Notes: generated by a model from the letters alone, not told the origin. Counted from the stretch's first letter, positions 13,250 through 47,415 are shown. The stretch is 64,000 nt of DNA from an uncultured Verrucomicrobiae bacterium (GCA_963762565.1 CAVXLD010000001.1:768001-832000); one strand, 5' to 3'. Program-made: numbers and translations.

Positions 13250-13540
13250 TTCCCAGCGCCTGGAGGGGAGCCGCTTTGGAGCGTATCTTTCCGCCCCGGC
13301 GAATTTAGTCTCAACACTTATCCGACCGAAACGGGCAAAAACAGGCGGCTCCCGGGAACGGCCCAGCGGTTCACAGCTCTAAGCCGGGGCAAACGAATCG
13401 GAGCCACGGGGTAAATCATCACCCTGGGTTATTCCCGGGAGCCGCTAGTTGCGACATTTTTTGGTCCGATTGAGTGCTGAAACAAATATCGCGAGGTCGC
13501 ATGCTACGCGCAAAAGCGGCTCCCCTCCAGGCGTTGGGAA
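13250..13540 (-). repeat. Family A four-box palindromic element (long type)
   Basis: CCTGGAGGGGAGCCGCTTT / AGGCGGCTCCCGGGAA / TTCCCGGGAGCCGC / AAAGCGGCTCCCCTCCAGG; flanked by an IR at 13200-13221 / 13569-13590. Confidence 0.93.
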
Positions 13541-13687
13541 CAAAATGCCTGGGCGACGTGCCACGCCTTTCGAGGACGAGGACGAAAACGCTCGTCGCGG
13601 AAGCGTTTGCCCCTATCGGAATCCCAAGATAGCAAATGAGAAACACGTCGTAGGGCTGGACAGGTACGCCTCTATTGATAAACTGCG

Positions 13688-14533
13688 GTGCATATGTCCC
13701 CTCCGTGGAAGTGGCTTTTGCCGAGCATCATCGCCATTTTGGCAGTCGAACCTTCGGGTGCACAGCAAGCCGCCGCGGGTGGTTCCGCGACCCCAGCGGC
13801 TTCACCGTTGCCCGAGGCGGAACTGAAAGCAGCCGTCACTGTCGACTCACTCACCGTCCCGACGCCGGGAGAATTTTTCAAAGCGATCGATAAGACCGGT
13901 AAACCAAACTGGGCCTCTCAATTTCGCCCGCCTACTCCGATCGGAGGGGTGAATCGAGCCCAAATGGCCCTAAACCTGGGTACCTTGATCGCGGACGGGT
14001 ACATCGCAGTCGAGGCGCAGGACGGTCAACAGGTCAAAAATATCGGACGAGATGTACTAGCCCTGGCGAAAAAACTCAGCGTGTCCGATAGCGTCTTAGC
14101 CCGCGGTAAGAGCATAACCCAATTCGCTGAGGACGGATCCTGGGATCAGCTGAATGAAGAGTTGGAAGCTACGCAAAACGAGGTAAAAAAGGCGCTCGAA
14201 GAGAACCGCGATAACGACTTAATTACTTTGGTGAGCATTGGAGGCTGGATCCGCGGTACCCAAGTTGTGACTGGGCTTCTAGTCGAAAGCTATAACCCGG
14301 AGACGGCGAAGCTTCTGCGACAGCCTGCTTTGGTTGACTATTTGCGAGGCAAATTGGATCAACTTCCAACCAGGCTCCGTCAGGACAAACTCGTCGTTAA
14401 AGTGAATGGCGACCTTAAGAACATCGCGACTCTGGTCTCATTCCCCGCGGATCATGTTCCCACAGCGGGTGAGGTGAAGACTCTTAACCAGGCTTCTGCA
14501 AAATTGACCAAGGAAATCTCGGCCGGCGAATGA
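13688..14533 (+). CDS. Exported hypothetical protein
   Basis: 281-aa ORF with a signal peptide; overlaps the next ORF (ATGA). Confidence 0.8.
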   Translation: MHMSPPWKWLLPSIIAILAVEPSGAQQAAAGGSATPAASPLPEAELKAAVTVDSLTVPTPGEFFKAIDKTGKPNWASQFRPPTPIGGVNRAQMALNLGTLIADGYIAVEAQDGQQVKNIGRDVLALAKKLSVSDSVLARGKSITQFAEDGSWDQLNEELEATQNEVKKALEENRDNDLITLVSIGGWIRGTQVVTGLLVESYNPETAKLLRQPALVDYLRGKLDQLPTRLRQDKLVVKVNGDLKNIATLVSFPADHVPTAGEVKTLNQASAKLTKEISAGE

Positions 14534-15000
14534 AACGTCTCTTACACACTCTTGCCTTTTTCTTACCGTTTCCGGCGTTCCTGCTCGCTATCGGCGTTAC
14601 CATGAGCGGGCCTGCATCGCTGTTCGGCGCAGACACCGACGACCAAACGAAAGCTCACAGTGAGGTCCTGGATCTGGCCGGCGCTTTTCAAAATGACGGT
14701 TTCAAGCTCCGCGATGGAACTTGGTACGCGCAGGTTTCTAAGGACCATCCTCAAATACTCCAAGTCAATCTCTATACCGGCAACGCTTATTGGTTTTCCG
14801 TTGCCGAAGCCGATAGTTCAACGGGTTTGAACGTCTCGGTGTTTGACGATCATGGAAATCCAGTCGACGTTCAGGTCTACCAAAAGGACAACAAAGCTGC
14901 GGCGGGTTTTAGCCCAGACGCCAGCGGATTATACTACGTCGAAGTCTCGAGCTCCGCTCCAGTAGCGGCGACCTTTTGTTTGATCTACTCGTACAAATAA
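14530..15000 (+). CDS. Exported hypothetical protein (beta-rich)
   Basis: Hydrophobic N-terminus; coupled to the upstream ORF. Confidence 0.78.
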   Translation: MKRLLHTLAFFLPFPAFLLAIGVTMSGPASLFGADTDDQTKAHSEVLDLAGAFQNDGFKLRDGTWYAQVSKDHPQILQVNLYTGNAYWFSVAEADSSTGLNVSVFDDHGNPVDVQVYQKDNKAAAGFSPDASGLYYVEVSSSAPVAATFCLIYSYK

Positions 15001-15016
15001 AGTTTTTGCGTTTTCG

Positions 15017-15487
15017 ATGGCCACGGCCGGAGCTCAGGTTAGAGAAACCACGTCTGGACCAACCGTTAAACAGTTCTCTGTTTTTCTGTTGAATAAAGTT
15101 GGGGCTCTCCTCGAGATAATTCGAATACTGAATGAAAGTGAGGTTCACGTCATCGGTCTAAACTCCCAAGACTCGACCGACTCGGCGATAGTCCGGATCA
15201 TCGTGAGCGATCCGGAAGCGGTTGAACAGATTTTCGACCTCCACGAGGTCGCCTACAGCATCTCAGAGATCTTAGTAGTGGAGATGCGGGAAGTTGCCGT
15301 AGACCTGAAGAAGCTGCTCTCTTGCCTTCTGATGGCCGAGGTTAATATCCAGGTTTGCTACCCGCTTTTGCTCCGTCCCCACGGCCGTTCTGCCCTGGCT
15401 CTCCACTTGGACGATGTCGAGTGCGCCAGATCGGTCCTGGGGGGCCGAGGATTTACGATTTTGAATCAGACGGATCTTTCGCGATAG
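15017..15487 (+). CDS. Tandem ACT-domain protein
   Basis: KQFSVFLLNKVGAL...IVRIIVSDP...AEVNI. Confidence 0.85.
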   Translation: MATAGAQVRETTSGPTVKQFSVFLLNKVGALLEIIRILNESEVHVIGLNSQDSTDSAIVRIIVSDPEAVEQIFDLHEVAYSISEILVVEMREVAVDLKKLLSCLLMAEVNIQVCYPLLLRPHGRSALALHLDDVECARSVLGGRGFTILNQTDLSR

Positions 15488-15531
15488 CCTGCGTAGCCGG
15501 AAATGCGTACGCATTTCCGGCTACGCAGGCT
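15486..15531. repeat. Perfect 46-bp palindrome between convergent genes (possible bidirectional terminator or collapsed REP pair)
   Basis: AGCCTGCGTAGCCGGAAATGCGT|ACGCATTTCCGGCTACGCAGGCT. Confidence 0.9.
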
Positions 15532-15533
15532 GG

Positions 15534-17507
15534 TCACGCCGATTTCCGCCGATAACTCGGAAAACTTACTATTGCCTCCGATTCCTTCTCGCTCTCGGCT
15601 TCCAGGTCGCTGAAACCAATGCCCAGCCGATGGTCTCGATAGAGCGTGATCGCCACGTTCCGATTTACCCGGATGCACTGTTTGATTGCTTCCGGCTCTT
15701 TCTCGCAGAACAGGACGGTCTTCCAGGAGAAGATGTGTTTCGGCTTATGAAAATCGCTATTCGCGACAAACGGTAGCCGCTTTAGCCCGATGGGATTGAA
15801 GATGTCGTCACGATTGGCGACCTCCCAAGCGTCGAGCAGTGGGGCGTACTGGTCGATATGTTCCCAAAAATAGAGCGTGTTTTTCCCCCAGTGAGTCTTG
15901 AATTCATGGGGGTGAGAAGCGATCGCCAAGGCGCCCTGACCGTGAATCTCCGCAATGGTTCGAGTTATACTCAGGCCCGGATCAATCGGGCCTTTCAGAT
16001 CAACCGCTAATAAATGTGCAGAAGACCGCTTGGTCAGCCCATCCTTATTGAACTCAAGACCGCCCATCAGGATCATCCGGTATTTGTCGAGCGCCCTTTT
16101 CTTTTCCTTTTCGATGATGTCGAAGTACTCGGGCACCAGATCCAGAGTCAAAACCAAGCCGCTAAGGTTAGTAACTCTTCCAATCAATCGCGTGTAGTCA
16201 CAAATATGGTCGGTCACGCACAGGACATCAAAACCGCGTTGGCCATAGAAATCGACCAGCTCAGGGATGGTCAACTTGCCATCCGAATAGACCGAATGGG
16301 TATGCAGGTCGCAAAGGAGAATCGAGGGTGATTTTTTCCGGGCCGGCCTGGCAGATTCTATCTTTGGAACCAAAACCTTGCGGTTGGGTTCTGTGACTTC
16401 GAGACTAAGAATAAATCGAGCGATCTGTAAGGAAGCCGCGGGTCGACTCAACTTAGAGACATTTTGCGTCCACCGGGCCAGTACCACACCGCCGTTGGTA
16501 AAGGCATCGTCGAGCGTTTCAACGATGGAGTCCGCATCCGGAGCTAGCTGTCCACAATCGTTTTCTACGATCAACCTGGCGTTACCCTCTTCCTGGCCCG
16601 GCACCACTTGGCTAATCAGTACCGGGGTTCGCGCAGCGATTGCTTCTTGGATCGTCGCCCCACCGGCCTTCGTAATGACCAAGTGGTGACTCGTCAATAG
16701 CTCCGGCATCTTGGTCGTCCACCCTAGAATCTCGACCCGATGGCCAGGCGCCCTGACTTCGGCCTCAATAGCCCGCCGAAGAGCGGTATCGCGACCAACC
16801 GTCACCGTAAGCCGGATATCGTCACGCTTGCTTAGGCGTCTAACAAGAGAAGGAGCCTCTTTTTTGCCCGAGTTGATAAGGTACAAGACCCGTTTCGGCC
16901 CCACGTCTTGGCTCGTAAATCGATGGTCGACCATCTCGGCAAACCGATGAGTAACCGGAAAACCGAAAGTATGGATCCGATCATCGGTTATCCCGGCAGC
17001 CCGCAGAACCGCCGCAGTGTCGTCATTTGCAACAATAAAGTGATCGCTTGCACACCGGTACCAGATCGAATTCACCGTGATCGAATCAGTGACCACCGTG
17101 ATGTGCGTGAAGGCCCGGGGCTCACCGGCCGGCAAAACCTGGTCAATCACATAGCCGTACAGCGGATAGGTGGAAATCACCGCGTCGGGTTCAAACTGGC
17201 GAAGGAGGTCGGCCATCGCTCGTTTGAATCTGATCAGCATGGGCATGTTTGTTTCCACGAACTGCGTCCCATCGATGACATTGTAGATCTTGCCCCAGAC
17301 TCGGGGGGTACGATTGATGGCCGCAATGTAAGCGCGCCGCAAAAATTCGTTCAATCGACCGTAACACCGATCGAACAGATCGATGATCTGGACCCTGACC
17401 TCATTGCCGGCGACAACTTCCAAGGCATCCCGAATGTTTCGAGCTGCCGTGTTATGGCCTTCGCCGAATCCAGCAGTGAAGATCAGAATCTGCTTCATGC
17501 GCCGCAA
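15534..17507 (-). CDS. MGDG-synthase/UgtP-like glycosyltransferase fused to a PHP metal-dependent phosphoesterase
   Basis: TAGFGEGH, ITKAGG, PGQEEGNA; C-terminal DLHTHSVYSDG, VTDH, SHPH, NSDFH. Confidence 0.88.
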   Translation of the reverse strand: MRRMKQILIFTAGFGEGHNTAARNIRDALEVVAGNEVRVQIIDLFDRCYGRLNEFLRRAYIAAINRTPRVWGKIYNVIDGTQFVETNMPMLIRFKRAMADLLRQFEPDAVISTYPLYGYVIDQVLPAGEPRAFTHITVVTDSITVNSIWYRCASDHFIVANDDTAAVLRAAGITDDRIHTFGFPVTHRFAEMVDHRFTSQDVGPKRVLYLINSGKKEAPSLVRRLSKRDDIRLTVTVGRDTALRRAIEAEVRAPGHRVEILGWTTKMPELLTSHHLVITKAGGATIQEAIAARTPVLISQVVPGQEEGNARLIVENDCGQLAPDADSIVETLDDAFTNGGVVLARWTQNVSKLSRPAASLQIARFILSLEVTEPNRKVLVPKIESARPARKKSPSILLCDLHTHSVYSDGKLTIPELVDFYGQRGFDVLCVTDHICDYTRLIGRVTNLSGLVLTLDLVPEYFDIIEKEKKRALDKYRMILMGGLEFNKDGLTKRSSAHLLAVDLKGPIDPGLSITRTIAEIHGQGALAIASHPHEFKTHWGKNTLYFWEHIDQYAPLLDAWEVANRDDIFNPIGLKRLPFVANSDFHKPKHIFSWKTVLFCEKEPEAIKQCIRVNRNVAITLYRDHRLGIGFSDLEAESEKESEAIVSFPSYRRKSA

Positions 17508-17668
17508 AAAAAAGAAGTCCGGACCGGTTTATGTTTTGGGAGCGGAAATTGTTCGGATATAATAATGAGCCGGTGAGAGTAACTGAATGACCCACTGCCT
17601 TCCAGTGAATTTCGCACAACGCAAGATCAAGCGGGCCATCGGAGAAGGTATCAGCAAAGGAGTAGCCT

Positions 17669-18718
17669 TTGGTTTGTTTTAGCGTGCGAAACCTCAGCCG
17701 CCATTTTCGCAGGAGCTACTTCATACTCGGACTAGCTTGGTTTTTTGCCACCTCATTTTCGCCTGGCCAATCCTCGGACGAGGAGCAGCGCCTGAAGGAA
17801 CTATTCTTGAAGAGCCGGCAGGAAATGCAAATCGTTCCCAGCCCGACTCCTACGCCGAAGGCGACGCCAGTGCCGGCGGCGCCGGCTCACAAACCCTTCC
17901 ATCACCGCGCCAGCGAAAGTGAAACTCCGGCCAACCGATCCGAGGAAAAGTCTGAAGAGAGAAGTGAGCATGCGGCTGAGACGACGAAGCCGACGCCGAT
18001 GCAAACCCCGATACCGGCGCCAACTGAAAAGGTTGAAGAGCCTCCGGCTCGATCAGCGGCAACGCCCAAAGAGGAAAGTTGGGTTGCACCGACCCCAAAG
18101 AAGCGTCACAGCTTCCTCTTTTTCCATTGGGGTTCTGACGACGACGAAATCGTGGTTCAAAAGTCAGGGCGCCAGGGTGAATCCGTTCCGGTCGGACACT
18201 ATAATGGCCGATGGCGATACCTAACTCCGGCTGTGCGACGGGCGATCGATGAAGCGCGTGTCGCCAGGAACCGCTGGAAATATATCGTGGTGCACAACAG
18301 TGGAACCCGCCAAGGAAACGCGAGGATCTTTGACTATTATCACCGGCACGTCAGGCGTATGCCCAATGGGCTTGCCTATCATTTTGTTATTGGAAATGGG
18401 ACCTCATCAGGGGATGGCCAGATCGAGATTGGGAATCGGTGGGTGGTCCAACTCGCCGGCGGACACGTCCACAGCGACTATCTCAATTACATCGCCCTCG
18501 GCATCTGTCTGGTCGGCGATTTCAATCGCGATCTCCCCACCAGAGCGCAATACGACGCCTTGGACGAGCTGATCCGGTATCTTCGACAGCGAGTCGGCAA
18601 AATCGACGGACACTACTCGATTGTCCTAGGTCACAAAGAGATAAATCCGGTGCCAACGGATTGCCCTGGCAATCGTTTCCCTCTTAATTGGCTGCATCGG
18701 ACTTTTCCTAACAATTAA
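17669..18718 (+). CDS. N-acetylmuramoyl-L-alanine amidase (Amidase_2) with Pro/Glu-rich linker
   Basis: YIVVHNS, AYHFVIG, GICLVGDF, GHKE...TDCPG; start uncertain. Confidence 0.87.
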   Translation: MVCFSVRNLSRHFRRSYFILGLAWFFATSFSPGQSSDEEQRLKELFLKSRQEMQIVPSPTPTPKATPVPAAPAHKPFHHRASESETPANRSEEKSEERSEHAAETTKPTPMQTPIPAPTEKVEEPPARSAATPKEESWVAPTPKKRHSFLFFHWGSDDDEIVVQKSGRQGESVPVGHYNGRWRYLTPAVRRAIDEARVARNRWKYIVVHNSGTRQGNARIFDYYHRHVRRMPNGLAYHFVIGNGTSSGDGQIEIGNRWVVQLAGGHVHSDYLNYIALGICLVGDFNRDLPTRAQYDALDELIRYLRQRVGKIDGHYSIVLGHKEINPVPTDCPGNRFPLNWLHRTFPNN

Positions 18719-18730
18719 GCAAGCCCTCCG

Positions 18731-18818
18731 GAAATGACAGATGACAGAATAACAAATGACAGATTCCGCGTCAGGGGAAAACCTCATTTGTCATTTGGCA
18801 TCTGTAATTTGTCATTTC
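18731..18818. repeat. Inverted heptamer arrays (AATGACA / TGTCATT)
   Basis: About 4 units at 18731-18764 facing about 5 units at 18784-18818. Confidence 0.85.
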
Positions 18819-18855
18819 TATGGGCTTGGGATATTGAATCCGCTACCATCGTAAA

Positions 18856-19746
18856 ATGGAGATCGGCCTAACCGGAGCCTCGGGTTTTCTAGGTAGGCAA
18901 ATTATCGATCAAGCCGTTGCCAGCGGTTGCAAGGTGGTCGCTTTCTCGCGAAATCCACATCACCCAGTGCCGGGTTGTGTCCGAACGGAATCGTTCAGCC
19001 CGGGGCTACATCTCAATGGTCTGAGCGCGGTCGTTCATCTGGCTGGAGAATCGATTTTCGGCCTTTGGACCAAGGCAAAGAAAGACCGCATCCTCCATAG
19101 CCGGGTGGAAGGAACCCGCTGGATCGTCAAAGCGATCCAAGGTGCACCTGACCCTCCCAAGGTGTTAGTGTGTGCCTCCGCCATTGGGATTTACGGAGAC
19201 CGCGGCGAGGAAGAGCTAACCGAAAGGCACACGGCTGGGACAGGAGCGTTTCTCACCGAGGTGAGTCGGGCTTGGGAGGCTGAAACCCAAGGAGCGACTG
19301 CCGCCGGCACTCGGGTCGTCAGCATTCGCACCGCGTTAGTGCTCGGGGAAAAAGGTCCGTTGGCTCTAATGCAGCCGGTTTTTAGTCTCGGACTCGGAGG
19401 CCGGTTCGGGAAAGGCGACCAGTGGATGTCGTGGGTCCATATTCGCGACATCGCAAATATCTTCCTGTACGCAATCCAAACAGACTCCCTATCCGGACCA
19501 GTGAATGGCGCAGCGCCTAATCCGGTTCGAAACAGTGAATTCACTCAGGTCTTGGGGACGATGTTTAACAAATCCACGGTCTGTACAGTCCCGTCATTCG
19601 TTTTGAGGACAGTATTTCCCGAGCAATCCACATTGGTGCTCGATAGCCAGAGAGTGATCCCGGAAAAACTTCTGGCTTCTGGCTACCAGTTCCAATTTCC
19701 GTTTTTGGACGGGGCACTAAAGGATCTGGTCAAGCCGAAGAGCTGA
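18856..19746 (+). CDS. TIGR01777/YfcH-like NAD-dependent epimerase
   Basis: TGASGFLG, VHLAGE, SAIGIYG, GDQWMSWVH. Confidence 0.9.
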   Translation: MEIGLTGASGFLGRQIIDQAVASGCKVVAFSRNPHHPVPGCVRTESFSPGLHLNGLSAVVHLAGESIFGLWTKAKKDRILHSRVEGTRWIVKAIQGAPDPPKVLVCASAIGIYGDRGEEELTERHTAGTGAFLTEVSRAWEAETQGATAAGTRVVSIRTALVLGEKGPLALMQPVFSLGLGGRFGKGDQWMSWVHIRDIANIFLYAIQTDSLSGPVNGAAPNPVRNSEFTQVLGTMFNKSTVCTVPSFVLRTVFPEQSTLVLDSQRVIPEKLLASGYQFQFPFLDGALKDLVKPKS

Positions 19747-19843
19747 GTAGGGGTGGCCACCCGTGGAGCGTTGCCTCGCTTGCGAGGCCGTTCTCGCCGT
19801 CGCCCTCGACAGGCGGGTGGCGCGTCAATGCAATGCTCGACTA

Positions 19844-20130
19844 CCCAGCGCCTGGAGGGGAGCCGCTTTGGCGTTCATCTCTCCGCCCTCGCGAATTTCG
19901 TCGCAACCCTCATCCGGCCGAAACTCGCAAAAACAGGCGGCTCCCGGGAACGACCGAGCGGTTCGTAGCTCTACGGCCGGGTGTAAACGAGTTGAGCCAA
20001 GGGCAAATCATCGCGCTGGATTATTCGCGGGAGCCGCGTGTTGCGACATTTCGTGGTCGGATGAAGCACTGAAACAAATATTGCGAGGTCGTCTGTTACG
20101 CACCAAAGCGGCTCCCCTCCATGCGTTGGG
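19844..20130 (-). repeat. Family A element (long type) inside further IR layers spanning 19747-20226
   Basis: Same four boxes; linkers align with the 13250 copy. Confidence 0.93.
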
Positions 20131-20229
20131 AACAAACATACGTTGTCAACGGGCCACGCTTTTCGAGGACGAGAACGGCCCCGCAAGCGAGGCAGCGGTA
20201 CACGGGTCGCGACCCTTCGCCCTACCAAC

Positions 20230-21276: not shown

Positions 21277-21323
21277 CAGACTGAATACCTCACACTTACT
21301 GCCAGGAGCCCTAGAGACCATCA

Positions 21324-27174: not shown

Positions 27175-27222
27175 GGAAAAAGGGGGAGGATAAGCTCGGG
27201 AGTTCAGGAGTTCAAGGAGTTC

Positions 27223-27449
27223 GGTAGGGCGAAAACCTCGGCGCGCCTTTGACGCCGCCACTTCACATCGATTGAACGCGCCGGGTTTGAGCCGCGCCGT
27301 GCGGCGATCATGCCCAATGTCAACAAAGTCCGCGCCTTGGTTCGGTTCTGGTCCATGAGTATCGGCTGCGCTGGATCGCGGCTCAAACCCGGCGCGGCCA
27401 GACTATAGAGTAAACGGCACCCTCGACGCGCCGAGGTTTTCGCCCTACC
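27223..27449. repeat. Family C GTAG-headed nested palindrome (REPIN-like)
   Basis: Perfect 23-bp IR 27223-27245 / 27427-27449 and perfect 20-bp inner IR 27277-27296 / 27377-27396. Confidence 0.92.
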
Positions 27450-28356: not shown

Positions 28357-29571
28357 TCACTCGGACATGTTTAAGCGAACATATTCGGGCGTCAGGTCTG
28401 TTGTGAATACCTTGTATTCAGCTGAGCCGAGGTGCAGGTCAACGGTGACCGTGAATTTTTCGTTCTCGAGGATCTCTTTCAGCTTTTCTGGGGGAGTCGA
28501 ACTCGCCATGCCGTGCTCGACCGCAACAACCCCGTCGAAAAAGATGTCCAGCATTTCTTCTCTGACTTTTGCTGAGGAATAACCAACCGCCGCCATTATC
28601 CGGCCCCAGTTGGGATCTTCGCCGTACCAACTGCATTTAAGTAGCTTCGAATTGGCAATTGCTTCCGCGGCTTTCCGCGCATCCTGATAAGTAGCAGCGC
28701 CTTTCACATGGACCTCTACGAACTTGCTGACGCCTTCGCCGTCTTCCACGATCATTCTGGCAAGATTGCGAGTCACAAAGTTTAGCCCCTCGCCAAAGGT
28801 CTCGTAGCTCTGGTCTTCCGGTGAAAGCACCGGAACGCCTGCCTGGCCGTTAGCCAAACAGATGGCGGTATCGTTAGTGCTCATGTCGCCATCCACTGTG
28901 ATGCAGTTAAACGATTGCTCGACACTCTGCAAAAAAAGGCGTTGCAGGTCCCGTTTCTCGATCGCGGCATCGGTAGTCACAAAACAAAGCATCGTCGCCA
29001 TATTCGGGTCGATCATACCTGCTCCTTTGGCGGCGCCTCCGATCCGGATCGCCTTCCCCCGCACGGGAAATTCGATCGCGACCTCCTTGTGAAAAGTGTC
29101 ACTAGTCATGATGGCACGCGCAAAGGCAGAACCTGCCTGGCTATCCAGCCCGGCGAACAGCTCAGGAATTGCCCGCTCAATCTTCTCGATTGGCAGTTGC
29201 CGCCCGATCCGTCCGGTCGAACAGACTAAAGTATGGCGTTCCCTCCAGTGGCCGTTTTGTCCTACCACTTTCGCCATGCGTTTGGCGCTTTGAATCCCCG
29301 TCGTTCCGGTACAAGCATTAGCGTTCCCGCTGTTAACGACGACGGCTCTGATCTCAGCCGAACGCACATGGCTAGCCGATACCCGGACCGGGGCGGCTTT
29401 TATGCGATTGGTGGTAAACGTGGCGGCTGGTACTGCCGGCACATCGGAAACAATGAGGGCAAGGTCAGGGCCCGCTTTCGTGTCGCCCTTTATACCGCAT
29501 CGGACCGCGGAAGCTCGGAATCCTCTGGGCGCCGTGACACCCCCAATGATCTCAGTAAAAGCGAAGGCCAT
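28357..29571 (-). CDS. argJ: Ornithine acetyltransferase / N-acetylglutamate synthase
   Basis: NSGNANACTG, KGAGMIDPNMATML, DGDMSTND, DGEG, NWGR. Confidence 0.96.
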   Translation of the reverse strand: MAFAFTEIIGGVTAPRGFRASAVRCGIKGDTKAGPDLALIVSDVPAVPAATFTTNRIKAAPVRVSASHVRSAEIRAVVVNSGNANACTGTTGIQSAKRMAKVVGQNGHWRERHTLVCSTGRIGRQLPIEKIERAIPELFAGLDSQAGSAFARAIMTSDTFHKEVAIEFPVRGKAIRIGGAAKGAGMIDPNMATMLCFVTTDAAIEKRDLQRLFLQSVEQSFNCITVDGDMSTNDTAICLANGQAGVPVLSPEDQSYETFGEGLNFVTRNLARMIVEDGEGVSKFVEVHVKGAATYQDARKAAEAIANSKLLKCSWYGEDPNWGRIMAAVGYSSAKVREEMLDIFFDGVVAVEHGMASSTPPEKLKEILENEKFTVTVDLHLGSAEYKVFTTDLTPEYVRLNMSE

Positions 29572-29641
29572 CAGTGAATCCTCTCAAATACCTCAGAGCG
29601 GGCGTTGGAACGAAGACAATAATCTTATGTTTTTTTATAAC

Positions 29642-29945
29642 GGTAGGGCGAAAATCTCGGCGCGCCGAGGACGCGCCAACGAATAACCCCGATTTCGCGC
29701 CGGATTTGAGCCGCCGCGTGCGACCGGCACCTGGAGGGGAGCCGCTTTGTCGGTTGACAGCTCTGCAGGATAGCAGCAGGCGGCTCCCGGGAATTACCCA
29801 TCGTCTCGTGTATGCCCCAGCGCACTCGGTCCGTCGGGAATAAATCGTTCGCGGCCCGTAGAATTGCAACGCGCTGGACCGTTCCCGGGAGCCGCCTGCT
29901 GACAAGCCTACAGAACTAGCAACTTATAAAGCGGCTCCCCTCCAG
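29642..29945 (+). repeat. Left half of a family C element (29642-~29716) fused to a family A element (short type, 29730-29945)
   Basis: GGTAGGGCGAAAATCTCGGCGCGCC...CGCGCCGGATTTGAGCCGC, followed by the four family A boxes. Confidence 0.9.
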
Positions 29946-29988
29946 TCTTGGAAGCTGCATCACGTCGAGACCAACGAACGCTCCCCGC

Positions 29989-31026
29989 CTAATTCAACCC
30001 CAGCGCTTCATCCCAGCCCTGCATGATATTTAAGCATTGGATCGCTTGGCCGGCAGCGCCTTTAACGAGATTATCCTCAGCTGACATCAAAATGACTTTC
30101 CCGGTCCTGGGATCCACTCGCCACCCCACCTCAATCGCGTTCGTGTAGGCCACGTTTTTCACGTCCGGAAATTGGGGCGCAGATAAAAGCCGTATGAAAG
30201 GTTCTTCACCGTAGGCGGAGGTCAGCGTGGCGCCGACTTGCTCCTCAGTCACCGGCGATGAAGGATCAACATGGATCGTGGTCGCAATTCCGCGATTTAA
30301 CGGTACGAGGTGAGGGGCAAACTGGATCTGCACCTTATCACCAGCTGCCAGAGAGATCTCTTGTTCGATCTCGGCAAGGTGCCGATGGGCGGGTAAGCCG
30401 TAGGGGCGCACACTTTCATTACATTCGACAAACATTAGCCGCGACTCGACAGTCCGGCCGGCGCCGCTCACGCCGCTCATGCTCACCGCCACGATTGAGG
30501 GCGGACGAACTTGCCCGGCCAATATTAAAGGGAGCAAGGGAATGAGGACGCTGGTCGGATAGCAGCCAGGACAGGCCACTAGGTTCGCCGTCCGGATCGA
30601 CTGCCGATGCCGCTCTGGCAGACCGTAGACTGCGTTTGCCAGCAGACGAGGCACGGGATGCGTGTGCCCGTAGAATTGCTCGTAAACCTGCGGGTCTTTG
30701 ATCCTGAAATCGGCACTGAGATCGACCACTCGGATGCCTGCCTCCAGCAAGGGCGCCGCCTGTTCTGCGGCAACACCATGTGGCAAGGCGAGAAAGGCGA
30801 CTTCGGCCCGACCTTTCAAACTAGCCACCTCTGGCGATTCGAACTGAAGCTTGCCCAAAGCGCTACGACGATCGAGCCAAGGAAAAATCTCAGAGGCCGT
30901 TTTGCCCGCTGCTTGTCGCGAGGTCAGAGCCACGATCTCGACCAGCGGATGCTTTGCCAATCGGCGCACGAGCTCTTCCCCCGTATAACCGGTGGCGCCA
31001 ATGATAGCAGCATTCAGTTTATTCAT
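29989..31026 (-). CDS. argC: N-acetyl-gamma-glutamyl-phosphate reductase
   Basis: GATGYTG, DLSADFR, PGCYPT, SGVSGAG, DNLVKGAAGQA. Confidence 0.97.
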   Translation of the reverse strand: MNKLNAAIIGATGYTGEELVRRLAKHPLVEIVALTSRQAAGKTASEIFPWLDRRSALGKLQFESPEVASLKGRAEVAFLALPHGVAAEQAAPLLEAGIRVVDLSADFRIKDPQVYEQFYGHTHPVPRLLANAVYGLPERHRQSIRTANLVACPGCYPTSVLIPLLPLILAGQVRPPSIVAVSMSGVSGAGRTVESRLMFVECNESVRPYGLPAHRHLAEIEQEISLAAGDKVQIQFAPHLVPLNRGIATTIHVDPSSPVTEEQVGATLTSAYGEEPFIRLLSAPQFPDVKNVAYTNAIEVGWRVDPRTGKVILMSAEDNLVKGAAGQAIQCLNIMQGWDEALGLN

Positions 31027-31100
31027 CGGACGTGTTGAGAAATGTGGTTGTTAAAAAGAAGAGCGACCATCGGCCTGCGAGGAGATGGTTGCAAGACGAA

Positions 31101-31319
31101 CCGGAGGGGAGCCGCTTTGTAGGTTGGCATCTCTATCGGTTGGCAGCAGGCGGCTCCCGGGAATAACCCAGAGCAATCCTCGCACCCACGGACTCCGTTC
31201 TTTCACGTCAATCCATCCGAGCGCTACCGATAGAACTGCAGAATCGGGTGACGTTCCCGGGAGCCGCCTGTTAAATAGCCGACAGACCTTTGCCACAATA
31301 CAAAGCGGCTCCCCTCCAG
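31101..31319 (+). repeat. Family A element (short type) in the divergent argC/thrS gap
   Basis: Four boxes; arms align with the 29730 and 47161 copies. Confidence 0.93.
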
Positions 31320-31406
31320 TCTCCTGGGCCCTCCAAAACGCGCTCCCGTTCGTCGAAAAAACCATCTGGTCTTCGGCTTTGTTACATGTAAGTTCCCTCC
31401 CCTTTG

Positions 31407-33275
31407 ATGAGCGACAAAAATACAGCTGCAAAACCGATGACTGATCTCGAGCGGTTAAGGCACTCAACCGCTCATGTGTTGGCCACCGCTATCCTGCGCA
31501 TTTGGCCAGAAGCCCAGTTCGCTGCTGGGCCACCGGTGGACAACGGCTTTTATTATGACCTGGAGCTGGATCATCACATTACCCCGGACGATTTCGGCCG
31601 CATCGAGGCAGAGATGGGTAAAGTCATCCAGGAAAACCAGCCCTTTGAGCGAATCTCGGTCGATAGAAAAGAAGCGATCAATTTAGCTCAAAAGGGAGCA
31701 CTGGCTGCACTCGGGCCCCGCACTGTGCCCAGCAAGTATAAGTTGGATATTCTGCGAAGAATTCCAGACGACGAAGAAATTACCCTTTACCGTAACGGGA
31801 ACTTTACCGACCTCTGCGCCGGGCCGCATGTTTCCAAGACCGGGGATATTGGCGGTTTTAAACTGACGAACGTCGCCAGCGCTTACTATCAAGGGGATGA
31901 GAGCCAGCCCCAATTGCAACGCGTCTATGGCACTGCTTTCAAAACCGAGCAGGAACTCAACGACTACTTTGCCCGGTTAGAAGAAGCCAAGAAACGCGAC
32001 CACCGAAAGTTGGGCCGCGAACTGGATTTGTTTCACATCGATGAGGATGTTGGTCCCGGCCTGGTCCTTTGGAAGCCAAAGGGAGCAGTGGTCAGACGAG
32101 AATTACAAAATTTCATTTCGGAAGAGTTACGCAAGCAGGGGTACACTGAGGTTTTCACACCGCATATTGGCAAACTGAATCTTTACCGAACTTCAGGCCA
32201 CTACCCCTACTATCAAGACTCCCAGTTCCCGCCGTTGATCGAGCCGGAGATGCTTCACCATTTGGCAGAAGAGGGGTGTTCCTGTGCGACCCTGTCAAAC
32301 ATGCTGAAAGACGGGAGTGTCGAAGGTTTCCTGCTGAAACCGATGAACTGCCCGATGCACATCAAAATTTTTGCATCGTCACCGCATTCATATCGGGATC
32401 TGCCGGTTCGGTTAGCCGAGTTCGGAACTGTCTACCGCTGGGAACAGTCTGGCGAGTTAGGCGGCTTGACCCGGGTGCGGGGTTTCACCCAGGACGATGG
32501 GCACATTTTTTGTACTGATGAACAACTCCCGGAAGAACTATTCCGCACGCTGGACGTTGGCATCCGGGTTCTTAAGACTCTTGGTCTGACTGACTTTCGC
32601 GCCCGCCTTGGGCTGCGAGATCCCGATTCATCTAAGTATGTCGGTGCTCCGGAACAGTGGGACATAGCCGAGGATGCGCTTCGGCAGGTGGCTAAGAACG
32701 CCAATATTACCTTTACCGAAGAGCGAGGAGAGGCGGCCTTCTACGGCCCAAAAATCGACTTTGTGGTTAAGGACGTCATCGGCCGGGAATGGCAGCTTGG
32801 CACGGTCCAAGTGGATTACAATTTACCCCAACGCTTCGATCTCCACTACGTCGCCAGCGACAATTCACCAAAACGCCCGGTCATGATCCATCGCGCCCCA
32901 TTTGGTTCGATGGAGCGATTCTGCGGTGTGTTAATTGAGCATTTCGCCGGCAGTTTCCCGGTCTGGCTGGCTCCGGAGCAGGTCCGAGTATTGCCCATAT
33001 CCGATAAGCACCTTGAATACGCGCGTAAAATCGAGCACATGTTAGTGGAAGTGGGCGTACGGGCCACAGTTTCTGACACTTCGGACAAAATTGGAGCCAA
33101 GATTCGCCTTGCTCAGCTCGACAGGGTTCCTTATATGTTGGTGCTCGGCGCACGAGAAGAACAGGCCGCTAACGTGGCGGTGCGGAGCCGTTCCGGCGGC
33201 GACGAGGGAGTTGTCAGTGCGCAGCAATTCGTGGAAAGGGTTCAGAGAGAAATTAAGGAAAAGAAACTTGAGTGA
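31407..33275 (+). CDS. thrS: Threonyl-tRNA synthetase (no N-terminal TGS domain)
   Basis: RHSTAH, DLCAGPH, KPMNCP, RVRGFTQDD, FYGPKID, HRAPFGSMER. Confidence 0.97.
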   Translation: MSDKNTAAKPMTDLERLRHSTAHVLATAILRIWPEAQFAAGPPVDNGFYYDLELDHHITPDDFGRIEAEMGKVIQENQPFERISVDRKEAINLAQKGALAALGPRTVPSKYKLDILRRIPDDEEITLYRNGNFTDLCAGPHVSKTGDIGGFKLTNVASAYYQGDESQPQLQRVYGTAFKTEQELNDYFARLEEAKKRDHRKLGRELDLFHIDEDVGPGLVLWKPKGAVVRRELQNFISEELRKQGYTEVFTPHIGKLNLYRTSGHYPYYQDSQFPPLIEPEMLHHLAEEGCSCATLSNMLKDGSVEGFLLKPMNCPMHIKIFASSPHSYRDLPVRLAEFGTVYRWEQSGELGGLTRVRGFTQDDGHIFCTDEQLPEELFRTLDVGIRVLKTLGLTDFRARLGLRDPDSSKYVGAPEQWDIAEDALRQVAKNANITFTEERGEAAFYGPKIDFVVKDVIGREWQLGTVQVDYNLPQRFDLHYVASDNSPKRPVMIHRAPFGSMERFCGVLIEHFAGSFPVWLAPEQVRVLPISDKHLEYARKIEHMLVEVGVRATVSDTSDKIGAKIRLAQLDRVPYMLVLGAREEQAANVAVRSRSGGDEGVVSAQQFVERVQREIKEKKLE

Positions 33276-34611: not shown

Positions 34612-34792
34612 GGGAGGGATCGCTGCCTGTCCGACATAGCCTTCTCTTACTGGTTCCTTTTCTCCCAACTTAGGCGACGTCGGATCCCCGCGATCCGGTG
34701 TGACCGGAGCCGGGCGCGTTCGCCAACGAGGGATCAACCGCACTGGTAGGCCTTGAACGTCTTCGCGGCGCGCGAGGACGCGCGCCCTCCCC
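34612..34792 (+). repeat. Family B palindromic element, copy 3
   Basis: First ~75 bp nearly identical to the 2944 copy; same right arm. Confidence 0.9.
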
Positions 34793-34878
34793 AATCAGCG
34801 GCCGATCACGCGGTTCCTTCTGTTGACGCCTTCAAACAGTTGCCGCTCCTGGCAAAGAATGGTAATTAACTAACTCCA

Positions 34879-39714: not shown

Positions 39715-39718
39715 CTCC

Positions 39719-39997: not shown

Positions 39998-40171
39998 CGA
40001 ACCCGAGAGCTTCGCCCCGGCGTCGTGAATGCTACCATTTGAGCGAAGCAACCAACATCACAGGCTTACAAAAGCCAGCCTCGAGAAAATCTCGAGGCTG
40101 GTCAGCCCGCTTCTCACGCGCATACATAGGCATTTGTGAGGAACGCAGGCTCGCGTAAAATAAGAGCGCAT

Positions 40172-40750: not shown

Positions 40751-40751
40751 T

Positions 40752-41378: not shown

Positions 41379-41390
41379 AGAGAAAATTGA

Positions 41391-41579
41391 ATGTTCACGG
41401 CGCTTCTCCCCGGGCTAATCATCGTTGCATTTACGATCCTCGCGATTCGCTTTGTGTTGGGCTACTTAGTGCGCCCGGCCGGCTTCAAGCGGCCGCCAAG
41501 GAAGAACTTCGGGATCCGGACCCGCATCGTGCGAGGGTCGGCATACATCGTGAGTCACGTCGCGCATCGTTTGCGGTAG
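41391..41579 (+). CDS. Small single-TM hypothetical protein
   Basis: 62 aa with hydrophobic N-terminus and basic tail; follows the NUDIX gene. Confidence 0.45.
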   Translation: MFTALLPGLIIVAFTILAIRFVLGYLVRPAGFKRPPRKNFGIRTRIVRGSAYIVSHVAHRLR

Positions 41580-41661
41580 GGAAGCGCGTTAGCGCCTCGT
41601 TCCCGCCCTCGCCGTCGTCCTCGTTCTCGAAGCGTTTGCGACCTGATGCGATGCGCGAACG

Positions 41662-41951
41662 CCCAGCGCTTGGAGGGGAGCCGCTTTAGTGGTTATCGGG
41701 AGACCTCGCGCATTCGTCTCAGCGCTTCATCCGGCCAGAGAATGTCGCAACGGGCGGCTCCCGGGAGTAAGCCAGCGCGACGCATTCAGCCACGGCTTTC
41801 GATTCGCTTATACCCGGACCACAGAGCTGCGAATCGATGGGTCGTTCCCGGGAGCCGCCTGTTTTCGCCCGTTGCGGCCAGACTAGTGATGAGACGAAAG
41901 TTTGCAGGGTCGCCAGATACACGCCAAAGCGGCTCCCCTCCAGGCGTTGGG
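41662..41951 (+). repeat. Family A element (long type, opposite orientation to 13250/19844)
   Basis: Four boxes; flanked by a GAGGAC-repeat IR at 41608-41632 / 41965-41989. Confidence 0.93.
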
Positions 41952-42001
41952 AACGTGCCGACCCCTTCGAGAACGAGGACGAGGACGAGTACGCTGCCCA
42001 C

Positions 42002-43318
42002 CTACCCCTGCAACAACAACCTCGTTGGATCCTCAATACAATCTTTGACCCGAACCAGGAAAGTCACGGCTTCCTTGCCATCAACAACTCGGTGGTCGTA
42101 GCTGAGGGCCAGGTACATCATCGGACGGACCTCGATCTTATCACCAATCGCCACCGGGCGGTTTTGGATCTTGTGCATCCCAAGAATACCGCTCTGTGGT
42201 GGATTCAAAATCGGAGTGCTCAAGAGCGATCCATAAATCCCGCCATTCGTAATGGTAAACACGCCGCCAGTGAGCTCATCCAGTTGGAGTTTGCCATCTC
42301 GCGCTTTGGTCGCGAAACCGGCGACCACGCTCTCTAACTCGGCAAAGCTCTTTTTGTCCGCATCGCGAACCACTGGTACTACGAGGCCGCGCTCAGTACC
42401 CACCGCGACCCCAATATCGTAGTAATGATTCTCAACCAGATCATCCCCGTCGATTCGCGCGTTCATCGCGGGAACAACCTGAAGGGCGTCGACCACGGCC
42501 TTAATGAAGAAGGACATGAATCCAAGCTTGGTGCCGTGCCTCTTCTGGAAAACTTCTTGATAACTCGATCGCAGACGCATCACCGCGGTCATGTCGCACT
42601 CGTTGAATGTCGTTAGCATGGCCGCGTTCTGCTGGGCCATGACCAGCTGGGCCGCGATTTTCTTCCGAAGCGGTGACATTTTCCGGCGTACGCTTCGCCC
42701 ATCGCTCGAAACCGGCGCCAGTGGCACCGCTGGCTTACTCTCCACCACTGCAGCACCCTTTTGGGCGGGTTGCGGCTCCTCCCTCGCTGAAGCTTCCTCC
42801 CTCGCCGAGGACTTCGGCGAGCTCAGTCGAGCCGCTTCGGTGGACGAGTCTGCAACCTCTTTTTGCGCCGGCCGCTCTAAATAGTTGATCAAGTCCTCTT
42901 TCGTAACTTGACCGTGTTTTCCGGTTCCGGTCACTTCGGTCAACGAGATTTTCTCATCAGCCGCTAAACGGCGAACGGCCGGACTAAGCGCAGATTCTTC
43001 CTTGGCAGATGCCTCCGCTTTTGGGGAAGCCGTCACGGTTGCACTAGGGCCAGCCTTTGTCGATTCCGGTTTGATGGCGCTGCCGGTAGCATCAATCATT
43101 GCCACGATTTGACCGATCTTTACCTCTTCACCGGCAGCGACCATGATTTGCAATGTCCCGGAAGCTGGAGCTGGCACCTCGGTAGCAATTTTGTCGGTCT
43201 CCAGTGAGAAGATCGGTTCACCGTCCTGAACGGAGTCGCCATTTTGTTTAAGCCATCCAGATAAGACACCGGAGGTAATCGACTCGCCGACGGCTGGAAT
43301 TTTGACTTCGGTACTCAT
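42002..43318 (-). CDS. sucB: 2-oxoglutarate dehydrogenase E2
   Basis: Lipoyl domain [13 protein letters not shown]. Confidence 0.96.
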
Positions 43319-43332
43319 GTTCGATCGCTCGG

Positions 43333-46086
43333 CTAAAAGGAAAAAGCTTGCTCCAACAACTCTCTCTGCTGGCGGTCATGCCAAGCCTTGGATCCTACTG
43401 CCGGGCTGGCGGCCCGAGGCCGGCCAGCGTAAAGAAGCGGACGCGGTGTCAATGTGCTAAGCGAAGGTGAAATGTAAGTCCACGCACCCATGTTCCTTGG
43501 CTCTTCCTGGCACCAGACCCATTTCTCCGCCTTTGCCAACGGCGCGATAATCTCTTCTAAACGTTCGGTGTTGAGCGGATAGAGCTGCTCGACCCGAACC
43601 AGGGCGACGTCCTTGATCTTGGTCGTCTCAGCCTGCTTCAACAGGTCATAGTATATCTTGCCAGAACTGAAAATAACGCGGCTCACATTGCCCGGCTTAT
43701 CGAAGAGTGTGGGCCCAAGAATCTGTTGAAAAGAAGAAGCGGTAAAATCCTCCAGGTGCGAGACCGCTCGCTCGTTTCGAAGCAGCGACTTTGGCGTCAT
43801 CAGGATCAGCGGCTTCCGGAAATCTCGCTTCATCTGCCGCCTGAGCACATGGAAATACTGGGCCGGCGTGGTCAAGTTACACACCTCCATATTTTCCTCA
43901 GCGCAGAGCTGAAGGAATCGTTCCAAGCGAGCGCTCGAATGCTCCGGACCTTGTCCTTCATAGCCATGCGGTAATAACAGAACGATGCCGCTCGGCCGCT
44001 GCCATTTGGACTCTGAGCTAGCGATGAACTGGTCGATCACTACTTGAGCGCCATTGGCAAAGTCACCAAATTGCGCTTCCCACAAGCAAAGCATCTTAGG
44101 GAAATCGAGTGAGTAGCCGTAGTCGAAGCCCAGTACGGCAGCTTCTGAAAGCATGCTGTTATAAACGCAAAAACGCGCTTGATCCGGGGTAAGATTTGCT
44201 AACGGGATGTAGCGGTCGCGCGTCTCGACATCGTAAAGTACTGAATGACGCTGGCTGAACGTACCCCGGCGACTGTCCTGACCCGAAAGCCGGACCGGGG
44301 TCCCCTCTACCAACAATGATCCGAAAGCGAGCGCCTCACCATAAGACCAATCGTATGGGCCACCGCTCGCGTGCTGACTGCGGCGCCGGTCAAGCAGCAT
44401 CTTCCGGATCTGGGGCTGGATCCTAAAGCCGTCAGGCACTTTCGTGATGCCGTCCACAATCAGGTCGAAAAGCTCTTTAGAGATCTGAGTGACAGGTTCG
44501 CGATGGGTGTACTCAGGCTGAAAAACTGCGGTCGATTCTTCAAAGCTGCGATGGAGGTCTTTACGCGAGGTGACTTCGGTGGTTTGCACCTCGTTGAGAG
44601 CACGTTCCAGCAAATGCCTAAACTCTTTTTCCAGGTTGTCCGCATCTTCCTCAGTCAGCACTCCGGAAGCGAGCAGCTGGCGTTCAAAAATCTTGGTTAC
44701 GGCAGGATGCACTTGGATGGTTTTGTACAACCGAGGTTGGGTGAAACTCGGTTCATCCGTCTCATTGTGCCCATACCGCCGATAGCAATACATATCGATA
44801 ACGACATCGCGTCCGAACTGCTGTCGAAACTCGAAAGCGGTTTTCGCTACAAATGCCACTGCCAGAGCATCATCGCCATTCACATGGAAGATGGGCGCTT
44901 CAATCATCTTGGCCACGTCGGTGCAATAAGCACTCGAACGGGCGTCTGCCGGCAAGGTCGTAAAACCAATTTGGTTGTTGACGATGATGTGAACGGTGCC
45001 GCCGGTTTCGTAGCCGGGAAGTTGAGATAAATTCAACACCTCCGCCACCACACCTTGGCCCGCGAACGCGGCGTCTCCGTGAATCAAAAGCGGAAGCACT
45101 TTTGTGCGGTGCTCGGTGTCGCCTACGATCCGCTGGCGCGCCCTGGCTTTCCCTTCCACCACCGGGTTTACAATTTCCAAATGACTCGGATTGCCAGCCA
45201 AATGGATACCAACCTCGGCCCGGCCCTCGAAGACCCGGACGCTCTCGTAGCCAAGGTGATATTTGACGTCTCCATCACCAGCGACCAAGTCAGGAATATA
45301 GTTTTCCGAAAATTCTTTGAAAATTGTTGGATACGATTTCTTCAAAAAGTTCGCCAGGACAGTCAGACGCCCACGATGCGCCATTCCCATGACGATATCG
45401 GAGACGTTGACAGCAACGCACCCGCTCAAGATGGTCTCCAGAATCACCATCAAACTTTCGCTGCCCTGCAACGAAAAACGTTTTTGCCCGATGAACTTCG
45501 TATGAACGAACTGTTCAAAGGTCTCGGCTTCCATCAGCCAACGAAGAAGCTGTTTCTGTTGGTCCGCGTCCGGTCGGAACATCTCAAGACGAGTTTCAAT
45601 TCTCTCCCGCACCCACTCCCTTACTTGTTCATTCTGAATGTGCATGAACTCGACCCCGACGGTGCCCGAGTAGATTGCGTTAAGGGCGCTGAATAACTCA
45701 CTCAGTTCGAGCGATTTACCATTCTGAAAGTAACGAGAGGCTACCGGCGTCGAACCCGGCACGCCGGCCAAGCCCAGCCCTTCGAGAGTTAAAGCCGGTT
45801 GAGGCGGGGCCGGCGCAGTCAGCGGATCCAACTTCGCCTGCGTATGGCCCAAAATCCGGTAATTAGTGACCAGCGCGTCAACTCGGTTCTGCAAATCAGC
45901 GTCAACCGGCGGAGCGTAAGGAGCGGTTACCGTTTTATGCCCGTTACGAGTCGATGAATTCCCGAGTTCAAATCCTTCGAAGAAAGCTGACCACGTCGCG
46001 TCGACCGATGCCGGATCTTTTTTCCAACGTTGATGATATTCGTCCAACAGATCGGCGTTCCAATCGTTCAAATACGATGTTCTCAT
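43333..46086 (-). CDS. sucA: 2-oxoglutarate dehydrogenase E1
   Basis: [41 protein letters not shown]. Confidence 0.97.
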
Positions 46087-46349
46087 ATTTTTGCTCGGAG
46101 AGCAGAGGACCAGAAATCTAAACGAATAAGCAGACTCCCCAAACGAATTTTGATTAAAAAATTGGAGAGCCCAAGCGTTATTGCAAACCGCAAGTAACAA
46201 CGCCATCAGCGCCCCCGCCCCGCGCAACGGCTCAGCGGGTTTTATCGGCGAGTCCCACGCAACGTCAAGAAACGCGCGGCCCTTTGCGAACTCTGTATAT
46301 TGTTCCGGAGCCTCGCCTTACCAATCACTAATCACTAATCACCAATCAC

Positions 46350-47102
46350 ATGAAAGCCTCCCCCAGCGACTATCAACTCGACTTCAAGCGTCGTCGTGCG
46401 CTCGTAACGGGCGCCGGCAAGGGTATCGGCCGTGAAATTGCTGTCCAACTCCACCGGTTCAATGCCCAGGTTGTCGCGGTCGCACGCACCGATTCGGATC
46501 TGAAAGCACTAAAGGATGAAATCGGCTGCGAGACGATTATTGCCGAGCTTGGTGATCCGGCTGAAGCGAAGCGGGCGGCCGAGCAAGCCGGCGATATCGA
46601 TCTCTTAGTCAACAATGCGGCAATTGCCATCTTACAACCTTTCCTAAAAACAACCGTAGAGGCCTGGGACACGACCATGGCGGTCAATCTGCGGGCGATT
46701 GTGATTATTTCCCAGATTGTCGCGACCCGGATGATCGCGCGGGACGTCCGCGGTTCGATTATCAACGTCTCCAGTATGGCCCGCTTCCAAGCCTTGCACG
46801 ATCATGCCGCCTATTGCGCTTCGAAGGCCGGTTTGGATCAACTCACGGCGGTGATGGCGATTGAGTTGGGCGAATATGGTATTCGGGTCAACTCGGTTAA
46901 CCCGACGGTCGTTTTGACTGAGATGGGTAAACGGGCATGGAGCGACCCGGCAAAAGGCGGCCCGATGCTAGCCCGTATCCCGTTAGGCAGATTTGCCGAA
47001 TGCGAAGATATCGCAACCGTGGTCTGTTTTCTTCTCAGCGATGCCGCCGGGATGCTGAATGGTCTAGCCCTGCCCATCGACGGTGGCTTTCATACGACGT
47101 AG
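46350..47102 (+). CDS. Short-chain dehydrogenase, L-xylulose/dicarbonyl reductase (DCXR)-like
   Basis: TGAGKGIG, NNAA, YCASK, VNPTVVLTEMG..AWSDP. Confidence 0.88.
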   Translation: MKASPSDYQLDFKRRRALVTGAGKGIGREIAVQLHRFNAQVVAVARTDSDLKALKDEIGCETIIAELGDPAEAKRAAEQAGDIDLLVNNAAIAILQPFLKTTVEAWDTTMAVNLRAIVIISQIVATRMIARDVRGSIINVSSMARFQALHDHAAYCASKAGLDQLTAVMAIELGEYGIRVNSVNPTVVLTEMGKRAWSDPAKGGPMLARIPLGRFAECEDIATVVCFLLSDAAGMLNGLALPIDGGFHTT

Positions 47103-47160
47103 GGTCTGGCAGTTGGCGGTTCGCAGTTCGCGGTTCGCGGTTGGCGGTTCATCGGTTGGC

Positions 47161-47415
47161 GGTTGCTGACCCAGCGCCTGGAGGGGAGCCGCTCTGTAGG
47201 ATGGCATCTGTATTGGTTGGCAGCAGGCGGCTCCCGGGAATTAACCAACGCGTCAACTTCAGCCCAACGTGCCCACGAATCGCTTGCGTCCACCCCTGAA
47301 AACAAATGCGAGGAAACGTGGCGAATCAGGGGCGGTTCCCGGGAGCCGCTTGCTAGATACGGCTAGAGCTGCAACGCGACAAAGCGGCTCCCCTCCAGGC
47401 GCTGGGTCGGCAACC
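47161..47415 (+). repeat. Family A element (short type) nested in heptamer arrays (GCGGTTS / CAACCG)
   Basis: Four boxes; extended arm GGTTGCTGACCCAGCGCCTGG / CCAGGCGCTGGGTCGGCAACC; heptamers at ~47108-47165 and ~47410-47437. Confidence 0.93.

Follow-up and report, generated by a model that had tools for sequence, protein, structure and literature searches.

The window analysed here is a 64,000-nt stretch (CAVXLD010000001.1:768001-832000) of the genome of an uncultured Verrucomicrobiae bacterium (GCA_963762565.1, designated G000; 6.1 Mb, 15 contigs), in which six copies of a four-box palindromic element, designated family A, were found. Comparison of 61 genomes overall, including a genus set of six (G000 and its congeners G001-G005), indicated that family A is very probably a genus-wide family of REPINs, i.e., inverted doublets of REP (repetitive extragenic palindromic) elements, with a cognate REP-associated tyrosine transposase (RAYT), which likely copies it. 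The six copies in the window are as follows.

13262..13528: copy 1, long/long REPIN with arms 13262-13353 (+) and 13437-13528 (-) and a spacer of 83 nt, between divergent purQ and an unnamed open reading frame (ORF)
19854..20120: copy 2, long/long REPIN with arms 19854-19945 (+) and 20029-20120 (-), between a convergent epimerase gene and obg
29733..29943: copy 3, short/short REPIN with arms 29733-29788 (+) and 29887-29943 (-), between argC and argJ
31103..31317: copy 4, short/short REPIN with arms 31103-31158 (+) and 31259-31317 (-), between divergent argC and thrS
41672..41941: copy 5, long/long REPIN with arms 41672-41762 (+) and 41850-41941 (-), between a convergent Nudix gene and sucB
47180..47396: copy 6, short/short REPIN with arms 47180-47235 (+) and 47341-47396 (-), between convergent short-chain dehydrogenase/reductase (SDR) and B12 radical-SAM genes

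All six copies are intergenic, among ordinary housekeeping genes, and each bears the four boxes in the order originally predicted, with spacers of 83-105 nt between the arms. The loops between the stem halves measure 70/70, 70/70, 34/35, 34/37, 69/70 and 34/34 nt in copies 1-6. The two linker size classes of the original prediction describe the window (34-37 and 69-70 nt), but not the whole genome, where a third class of ~57 nt occurs. Copies 1 and 2 are 85% identical across two blocks of 136-138 nt. Copy 1 is enclosed by the inverted-repeat pair TCGTCCTCG/CGAGGACGA, and copy 6 by inverted heptamer arrays.

Arms, dimers and the cognate transposase

The unit of family A is the arm (box 1-box 2), which is found in dimers, singly, and in tandem around the RAYT gene. 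The arm consists of a GGAG head, GGGAGCCGC, a loop, GCGGCTCCC and a G(G/C/A)GAA tail; the stem is 9 bp long, and the loop starts with TT and mostly ends with CAG, giving arms of 56-92 nt and dimers of 200-290 nt. In G000, a strict rule retrieved 141 complete four-box clusters among 249 box clusters, and a looser rule retrieved 397 arms, 332 of which form 166 head-out dimers while 65 are unpaired. The dinucleotide CT stands immediately 5' of the head in 245 of the 397 arms, and 17 of the 166 dimers overlap crude, unchecked ORF calls. Exact matches to box A number 365 in G000 and 145-365 per genome across all six genus genomes, with 23 in one sister-genus genome and 0-7 in the other 54, and the reversed control pattern gave no match in G000 or in any other of the 61 genomes, which puts the repeat well outside what chance would give. 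By loop length, the arms fall into classes of 32-40 nt (140 arms), 52-62 nt (24) and 66-80 nt (227), with six outside these ranges. Pairing is assortative, since 88 long/long, 54 short/short and 10 long/short dimers were counted (expected 53, 24 and 72, respectively). The anchors proposed for the spacer are kept only in part, TAACCCA in 46 and TAGARCTG in 34 of the 166 spacers. An origin of TAGARCTG as a relic GTAG repeat is unsupported, the motif having 313 genome copies without a dominant context. One dimer (G000:C12:107660-108092) has its last roughly 53 nt, outer box included, in four tandem repeats.

The original prediction had compared the architecture to REP/REPIN elements moved by RAYTs, and a RAYT gene flanked by the same boxes was found. 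Among 12 Y1_Tnp matches in G000, one is immediately flanked by arms with their heads outward. This gene, G000:C1:579808-580269 (+) (L012:1432-1893), lies outside the window, 188 kb before it, and has three arms upstream, two full and one partial, and a single one downstream. The protein passes the cut-off of 80 for NF047646 (NCBIfam REP-associated tyrosine transposase) with 89.4 bits, contains the motifs DHIH and YVRNNP and aligns to TnpA-REP of Escherichia coli, and its predicted fold (predicted local distance difference test, pLDDT, 92) best matches 4ER8 (E 1.6e-9, template-modelling score, TM, 0.72). The motifs of the RAYT come closest to subclass 2.4 or 2.7 of TnpA-Y1 class 2, which is too little for a subclass assignment. 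The best RAYT matches in G001-G004 (68-74% identity) have the same arms as flanks in all four genomes, as tandem arrays, with loops of 71 nt in G001 and 34-35 nt in the others. The same neighbour gene adjoins the RAYT copy in G001, G002 and G004, the G003 contig being too short to tell; in G004 the copy at this shared locus is broken, and a second, intact copy lies elsewhere. The family-A-flanked RAYT is present as a single copy in G000, where its orientation between inverted REP arrays (G000:C1:579544-580374; L012:1168-1998) is opposite to that in L150, L151 and L103 at the same locus, so that the REPtron has likely been inverted in G000 relative to three congeners.

Several paralogs accompany this gene. 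A frameshifted RAYT paralog (~62%; G000:C4:78543-78997, L010), with intact copies in G003, G004 and G005, is flanked by a sister GGAG family with the stem GGGCGTYGC and 67-68-nt loops. The paralog at G000:C7:542274-542711 keeps His in the guide pocket and is flanked by the GTAG-headed GGTAGGGCGAAAATCTCGG family, which also occurs at window positions 13167-13200, 27222-27255 and 29641-29674, and a further paralog (C10:17399-17836) has GTAG/GTGG flanks. Five other short Y1 transposase genes with a Y-x3-Q motif (G000 C7:408.8 kb, C3:712.5 kb, C3:55.5 kb, C9:102.3 kb and C1:119.0 kb) each have their own palindromic flanks, and three intact 350-aa Y1 genes and a broken one have GGGGTC-type inverted ends.

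Taken together, family A shows the features of REPIN-RAYT systems: abundant extragenic palindromes, inverted doublets, a doublet as the replicating unit with presence/absence variation, and a REP-flanked cognate RAYT that is low-copy and vertically inherited. As in the account of Pseudomonas fluorescens SBW25 given by Bertels & Rainey (2011, PMC3116915), the REPs form inverted doublets with a less conserved spacer that fold as one long hairpin, doublets dominate and are the replicating unit, and the cognate RAYT is flanked by REP arrays. Unlike the GT[AG]G REPs described there, family A has GGAG, loops of 34-70 nt and the large arms and dimers noted above, and thus lacks both the 5' GTAG/GTGG tetranucleotide and the 20-40-nt hairpin with a short loop of canonical REPs. 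The RAYT shares with E. coli TnpA-REP (4ER8; sections of PMC3479197 and PMC8266576) the fold, the HUH/Tyr-x3-NP motifs and the tetranucleotide at the 5' stem foot, as in y/z REPs and bacterial interspersed mosaic elements (BIMEs). It differs in the guide pocket (WQRSFWDRQIR vs WQPRFWEHAIR) and in its shorter C-terminal tail (153 vs 165 aa). Head-out dimers, Verrucomicrobia hosts and insertion into other palindromes are likewise described, in the relevant passages, for the GTAG families and HH dimers, including those of Opitutus terrae (Di Nocera 2013, PMC3733652), and for TnpA-Y1 class 2 subclasses (Quentin 2018, PMC6006769). The heads given in the text of these two papers are GTAG, its variants GYAG/GYRG/GTRG/GTMG/GTGG, or CnGA, and the longest loop interior mentioned in the passages concerned is 27 bp. 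The string GGAG has no occurrence in the main texts of PMC3733652, PMC6006769 and PMC8266576, whose figures and supplements may list such families, and in PMC2817692 it occurs inside GTGGGAG/GTAGGAG sequences. Literature searches turned up no paper on family A, figures and supplements of the compared papers being outside their scope. At the level of the sequence family, the original statement that this is not a recognised named family holds, but REPINs as a type of element are known.

Head, loop and fold

The relation between head and enzyme was examined at 63 RAYT loci, picked by likeness to the query, with the head called by a fixed counting rule on the flanks; L013 (a sequence duplicate of another row) and L020-L032 (weak partial matches) were left out of the count. 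The 47 proteins without His at the position of E. coli H101 are associated with GGAG in 41 cases, GTAG in two and neither in four, and the 16 proteins with His are associated with GTAG in 14 cases and GGAG in two. Two His paralogs in G000 itself have GTAG/GTGG flanks. This sequence association suggests that the GGAG head tracks the loss of His in the RAYT guide pocket, possibly as one event. Repeated independent switches of head and His, hinted at by a quick tree, were not upheld, as a single His clade was not rejected by the approximately unbiased (AU) test (p-AU 0.635) and the constrained tree scored higher. A His-bearing RAYT paralog in G004 (L155) is flanked by the palindromic family GCCTCGCTTGCGAGGC, whose head is ambiguous (GTGG or GGAG).

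According to the passages concerned in Quentin (2018, PMC6006769), H101 is among the guide contacts, but Arg is found there in subclasses with GT[AG]G REPs. In the structure paper, W99 sits between A3 and T2, in passages that do not name the T2 contacts (PMC3479197), and any single change in GTAG is described as abolishing TnpA-REP activity in E. coli (PMC3479197, PMC8266576). By analogy with this enzyme, the residue at the H101 position may be linked to the second head base. Cleavage at CT would also be predicted, A3 and G4, which select the CT cleavage site in E. coli, being unchanged in GGAG.

Outside the genus, 13 of the 55 genomes contain the same head, stem and tail with a TT (2-nt) loop, G012 having 32 copies, and this compact form in sister genera has the short loop of canonical REPs. 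None was found in the six genus genomes, and no arm in G000 has a loop shorter than 20 nt. G012 also contains three arms with 63-66-nt loops (seven stretches inspected). Sequence comparison thus suggests that the long loop is a filler of 32-68 nt gained at the tip of a compact TT-loop REP, the direction being unproven. The middle (~57-nt) class corresponds to the short loop plus a hairpin of roughly 23 nt, and we infer that this hairpin was inserted into the 34-nt class. The upper stem-loop in E. coli is described as having a non-specific role only (PMC8266576, in part), which fits a drifting loop here.

Two folds had been considered, one long rod (1:4, 2:3) and two hairpins (1:2, 3:4). The sequence permits either, and minimum-energy prediction yields the rod in 165 of 166 dimers, with an advantage over 60 dimers of 25 (DNA) or 36.5 (RNA parameters) kcal/mol, but compensatory changes support only the 1:2/3:4 arm hairpins. 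These were counted directly, not by a covariance model, since stems barely vary within the family. Of 45 arms with a stem mismatch, five are changed in both halves; the 1:2 pair persists in four, of which two resemble sister-family arms. At C6:40259 the partner arm is unchanged while the 1:2 pair is kept, breaking the rod pairs. The sister stems GGGCGCCGC and GGGCGTCGC likewise show compensation inside the arm, and one G012 dimer has two arms with different compensated stems. A cargo-free rod was rejected as the selected fold, because partner matching and cross-arm compensation are both absent: similarity between partner loops does not exceed that between unrelated ones (0.57 vs 0.56; 0.67 vs 0.64), though partners match strongly in length class, and partner matches at the variable base after the stem number 78, vs 85 when shuffled.

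A bistable structured RNA switching between rod and hairpins, as proposed in the original prediction, is hardly credible on this evidence. The drawable folds and the matched loop lengths of partner arms would suit it, but the energy gap is of a size that speaks against equilibrium switching, and the rod shows no compensation. Structure within the short and long loops themselves was also rejected, as their folding does not surpass that of shuffled sequences (z +0.14 for short and -0.06 for long loops; 60 loops sampled per class). A search of the whole window against Rfam at gathering score returned a tRNA only, and at E<=1 the region 29500-31500 gave only a generic microRNA hairpin (50.6 bits vs a 268-bit threshold). 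Neither an Rfam family nor compensatory changes back an RNA fold of family A beyond the REP stem.

Copying of the dimer and competing explanations

Comparison with congeners revealed the presence/absence variation expected of a mobile element. Among 26 comparisons of the six window sites, five are filled, two collapsed and 19 without family A, often with another repeat family. Family-A boxes are absent at the sites of copy 1 (4/4 informative congeners), copy 2 (4/4) and copy 6 (5/5). The copy 3 site is filled in three of five congeners, with other loop classes (two long, one mid-class arm), and lacks the boxes in two. Two of four congeners have a centrally collapsed form with shared flanks at the copy 4 (argC-thrS) site and two have no boxes, and the copy 5 site is filled in two of four, with a different repeat family at the same place in the other two. 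In the reverse direction, 21 congener sites could be mapped, of which eight are filled, one half-filled and 12 empty in G000. Double-headed single hairpins, resulting from deletion between direct-repeat cores (box 1 to 3, or 2 to 4), occur at four places in G000 and at one site in two congeners; they correspond to the 'double-foot' REPs attributed to central dimer deletion in passages of PMC3733652 and PMC6006769.

In register, four dimers of the long-loop class, spread over three contigs, share 92-99% identity over arm-spacer-arm, vs 50-59% out of register; therefore, the dimer was copied whole. Together with the cognate RAYT and the filled and empty orthologous sites, these recent whole-dimer copies bear out the REP/REPIN and RAYT architecture. 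On single-stranded DNA, the RAYT likely recognises the GGAG head together with the 9-bp stem, and it is likely to copy or replace entire dimers between genes. As in E. coli TnpA-REP, cleavage would take place at CT, guided by the last two head bases, at a variable distance, and would thereby carry along flanking DNA and pieces of neighbouring repeats. The drift of the loops is probably explained by an enzyme that reads no more than the head and lower stem. A plasmid and phage search with one element gave no match, and no fixed duplication was seen at the ends of related family-A copies.

Several observations weigh against copying by this RAYT. The link between the RAYT and the arms is one of genomic association, and the minimum-energy rod hides the head. 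The G000 RAYT has short-loop flanks only, yet long-loop arms are the majority (227/397), and among family-A-flanked RAYTs long-loop flanks are found only in G001. The best RAYT match in G005, a genome that is 81% complete and has 197 box-A copies, has a sister stem family at its flanks instead. No target site was readable from the filled/empty orthologous comparisons, because empty sites usually hold other repeats and copy boundaries vary. The youngest copies share at least 25-35 nt past the heads, including pieces of other repeat families, and other groups of related copies share more flank, with boundaries that vary between groups. Furthermore, a GTCCTCGA-type outer repeat stands on both sides of 37 of the 166 dimers. 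Some copying may therefore go through the outer element.

Carried further, these flanks would make family A mostly a passenger of nested inverted-repeat composites copied by another repeat's transposase, its own RAYT being incidental. The flanks common to the four youngest copies do belong to other repeat families, and G000 has several other Y1 transposases with their own repeats, but 110 of the 166 dimers have no GTCCTCGA-type outer repeat on either side, boundaries vary among groups of related copies, and the RAYT-arm linkage is kept in five genomes, which leaves this explanation improbable.

The conservation of the arms bears on a different alternative. The boxes are near-invariant, as originally noted. 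Stems are perfect in 285/305 and 272/292 arms when anchored on the other box pair, head and stem together in 272/292 arms located via the inner boxes, and both boxes in 130/151 and 152/175 matches to a loop-only profile. The loops have a mean identity of 56-64% between copies, with a median of 80-82% to the nearest other loop. Where an orthologous site is filled in both genomes, the stems are intact and identity between matching loops is 46-82%; at three such sites the loop class differs. Such stems are far more conserved than neutral decay predicts, so that passive copying alone is insufficient, a further point against the simple copying account. Former RAYT substrates may now be kept mainly by the host, as binding sites or as RNA stability or attenuation hairpins, under per-locus selection on stems while loops drift. 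This explanation draws on the perfect stems and boxes, the distant nearest loops and the intact stems at shared sites, but 19 of the 26 orthologous sites are empty or hold another family. Orientation bias is also weak (38/745 convergent, 27/741 divergent and 80/2721 tandem gaps, from crude ORF calls), and a role as terminators was rejected on the same figures. In addition, in-place REPIN replacement by a resident RAYT, already proposed in the REPORTH preprint (10.1101/2024.10.14.618302, parts concerned), would yield equal stem conservation. Maintenance mainly by the host is possible but rather unlikely, and it is compatible with copying by the RAYT.

Neighbouring repeats and implications of the family

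Other repeats are numerous around family A. CGAGGACGAGAACG-type repeats form outer inverted pairs around family A (window 13196-13234 with 13571-13595; 41974-41998; 3143-3167; 6347-6371), and in congeners such pairs surround other repeat families at the same site, which makes the cassette inside exchangeable. Short tandem repeats, mostly of 7-9 nt, form inverted arrays on either side of intergenic regions or genes (window 6069-6104/6383-6418, 18786-18826/21315-21407, 47117-47162/47392-47437 and 57066-57303). Further palindromic families, GCCTCGCTTGCGAGGC and GGATCCTCGCGATCC with CGCGGCGCGCG, lie at window 19751-19802/20164-20215, and at 2944-3134, 34612-34804 and 56035-56178. A DDE_Tnp_1 transposase gene lies at 54418-55710, with no family-A boxes found beside it, a tRNA gene at 56916-56997 and dnaN-dnaA at 57296-60609, from which the window is probably near the replication origin.

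Family A departs from described REPs in its GGAG head and apparently obligatory long loop, and is otherwise a large, unusual version of a described element. Interest attaches also to the change in the guide pocket that goes with GGAG, and to the stems, held at ~99% while the loops drift. One bolder reading, distinctly unlikely at present, is that a RAYT lineage re-tooled its guide pocket (His to Arg/Thr) for GGAG and that in this genus the enzyme needs an opened hairpin tip and rewrites or swaps loops at resident sites. If so, REPINs would be cassettes of fixed frame and fixed length that hold variable DNA and have their stems repaired by the enzyme, which would explain stems ~99% conserved vs loops ~60% alike, zero compact copies in six genomes and the loop-class changes at orthologous sites. 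The family touches the questions of how RAYTs read the guide tetranucleotide and how REPINs spread or get replaced, and allows comparison in two natural settings. In a broad group of RAYTs, GGAG goes with a changed pocket, although any change in GTAG stops the enzyme of E. coli. An identical head and stem, moreover, carry a 2-nt loop in sister genera vs solely 34-70-nt loops in this genus. Systems of this kind would escape searches that demand GT[AG]G together with a short loop.

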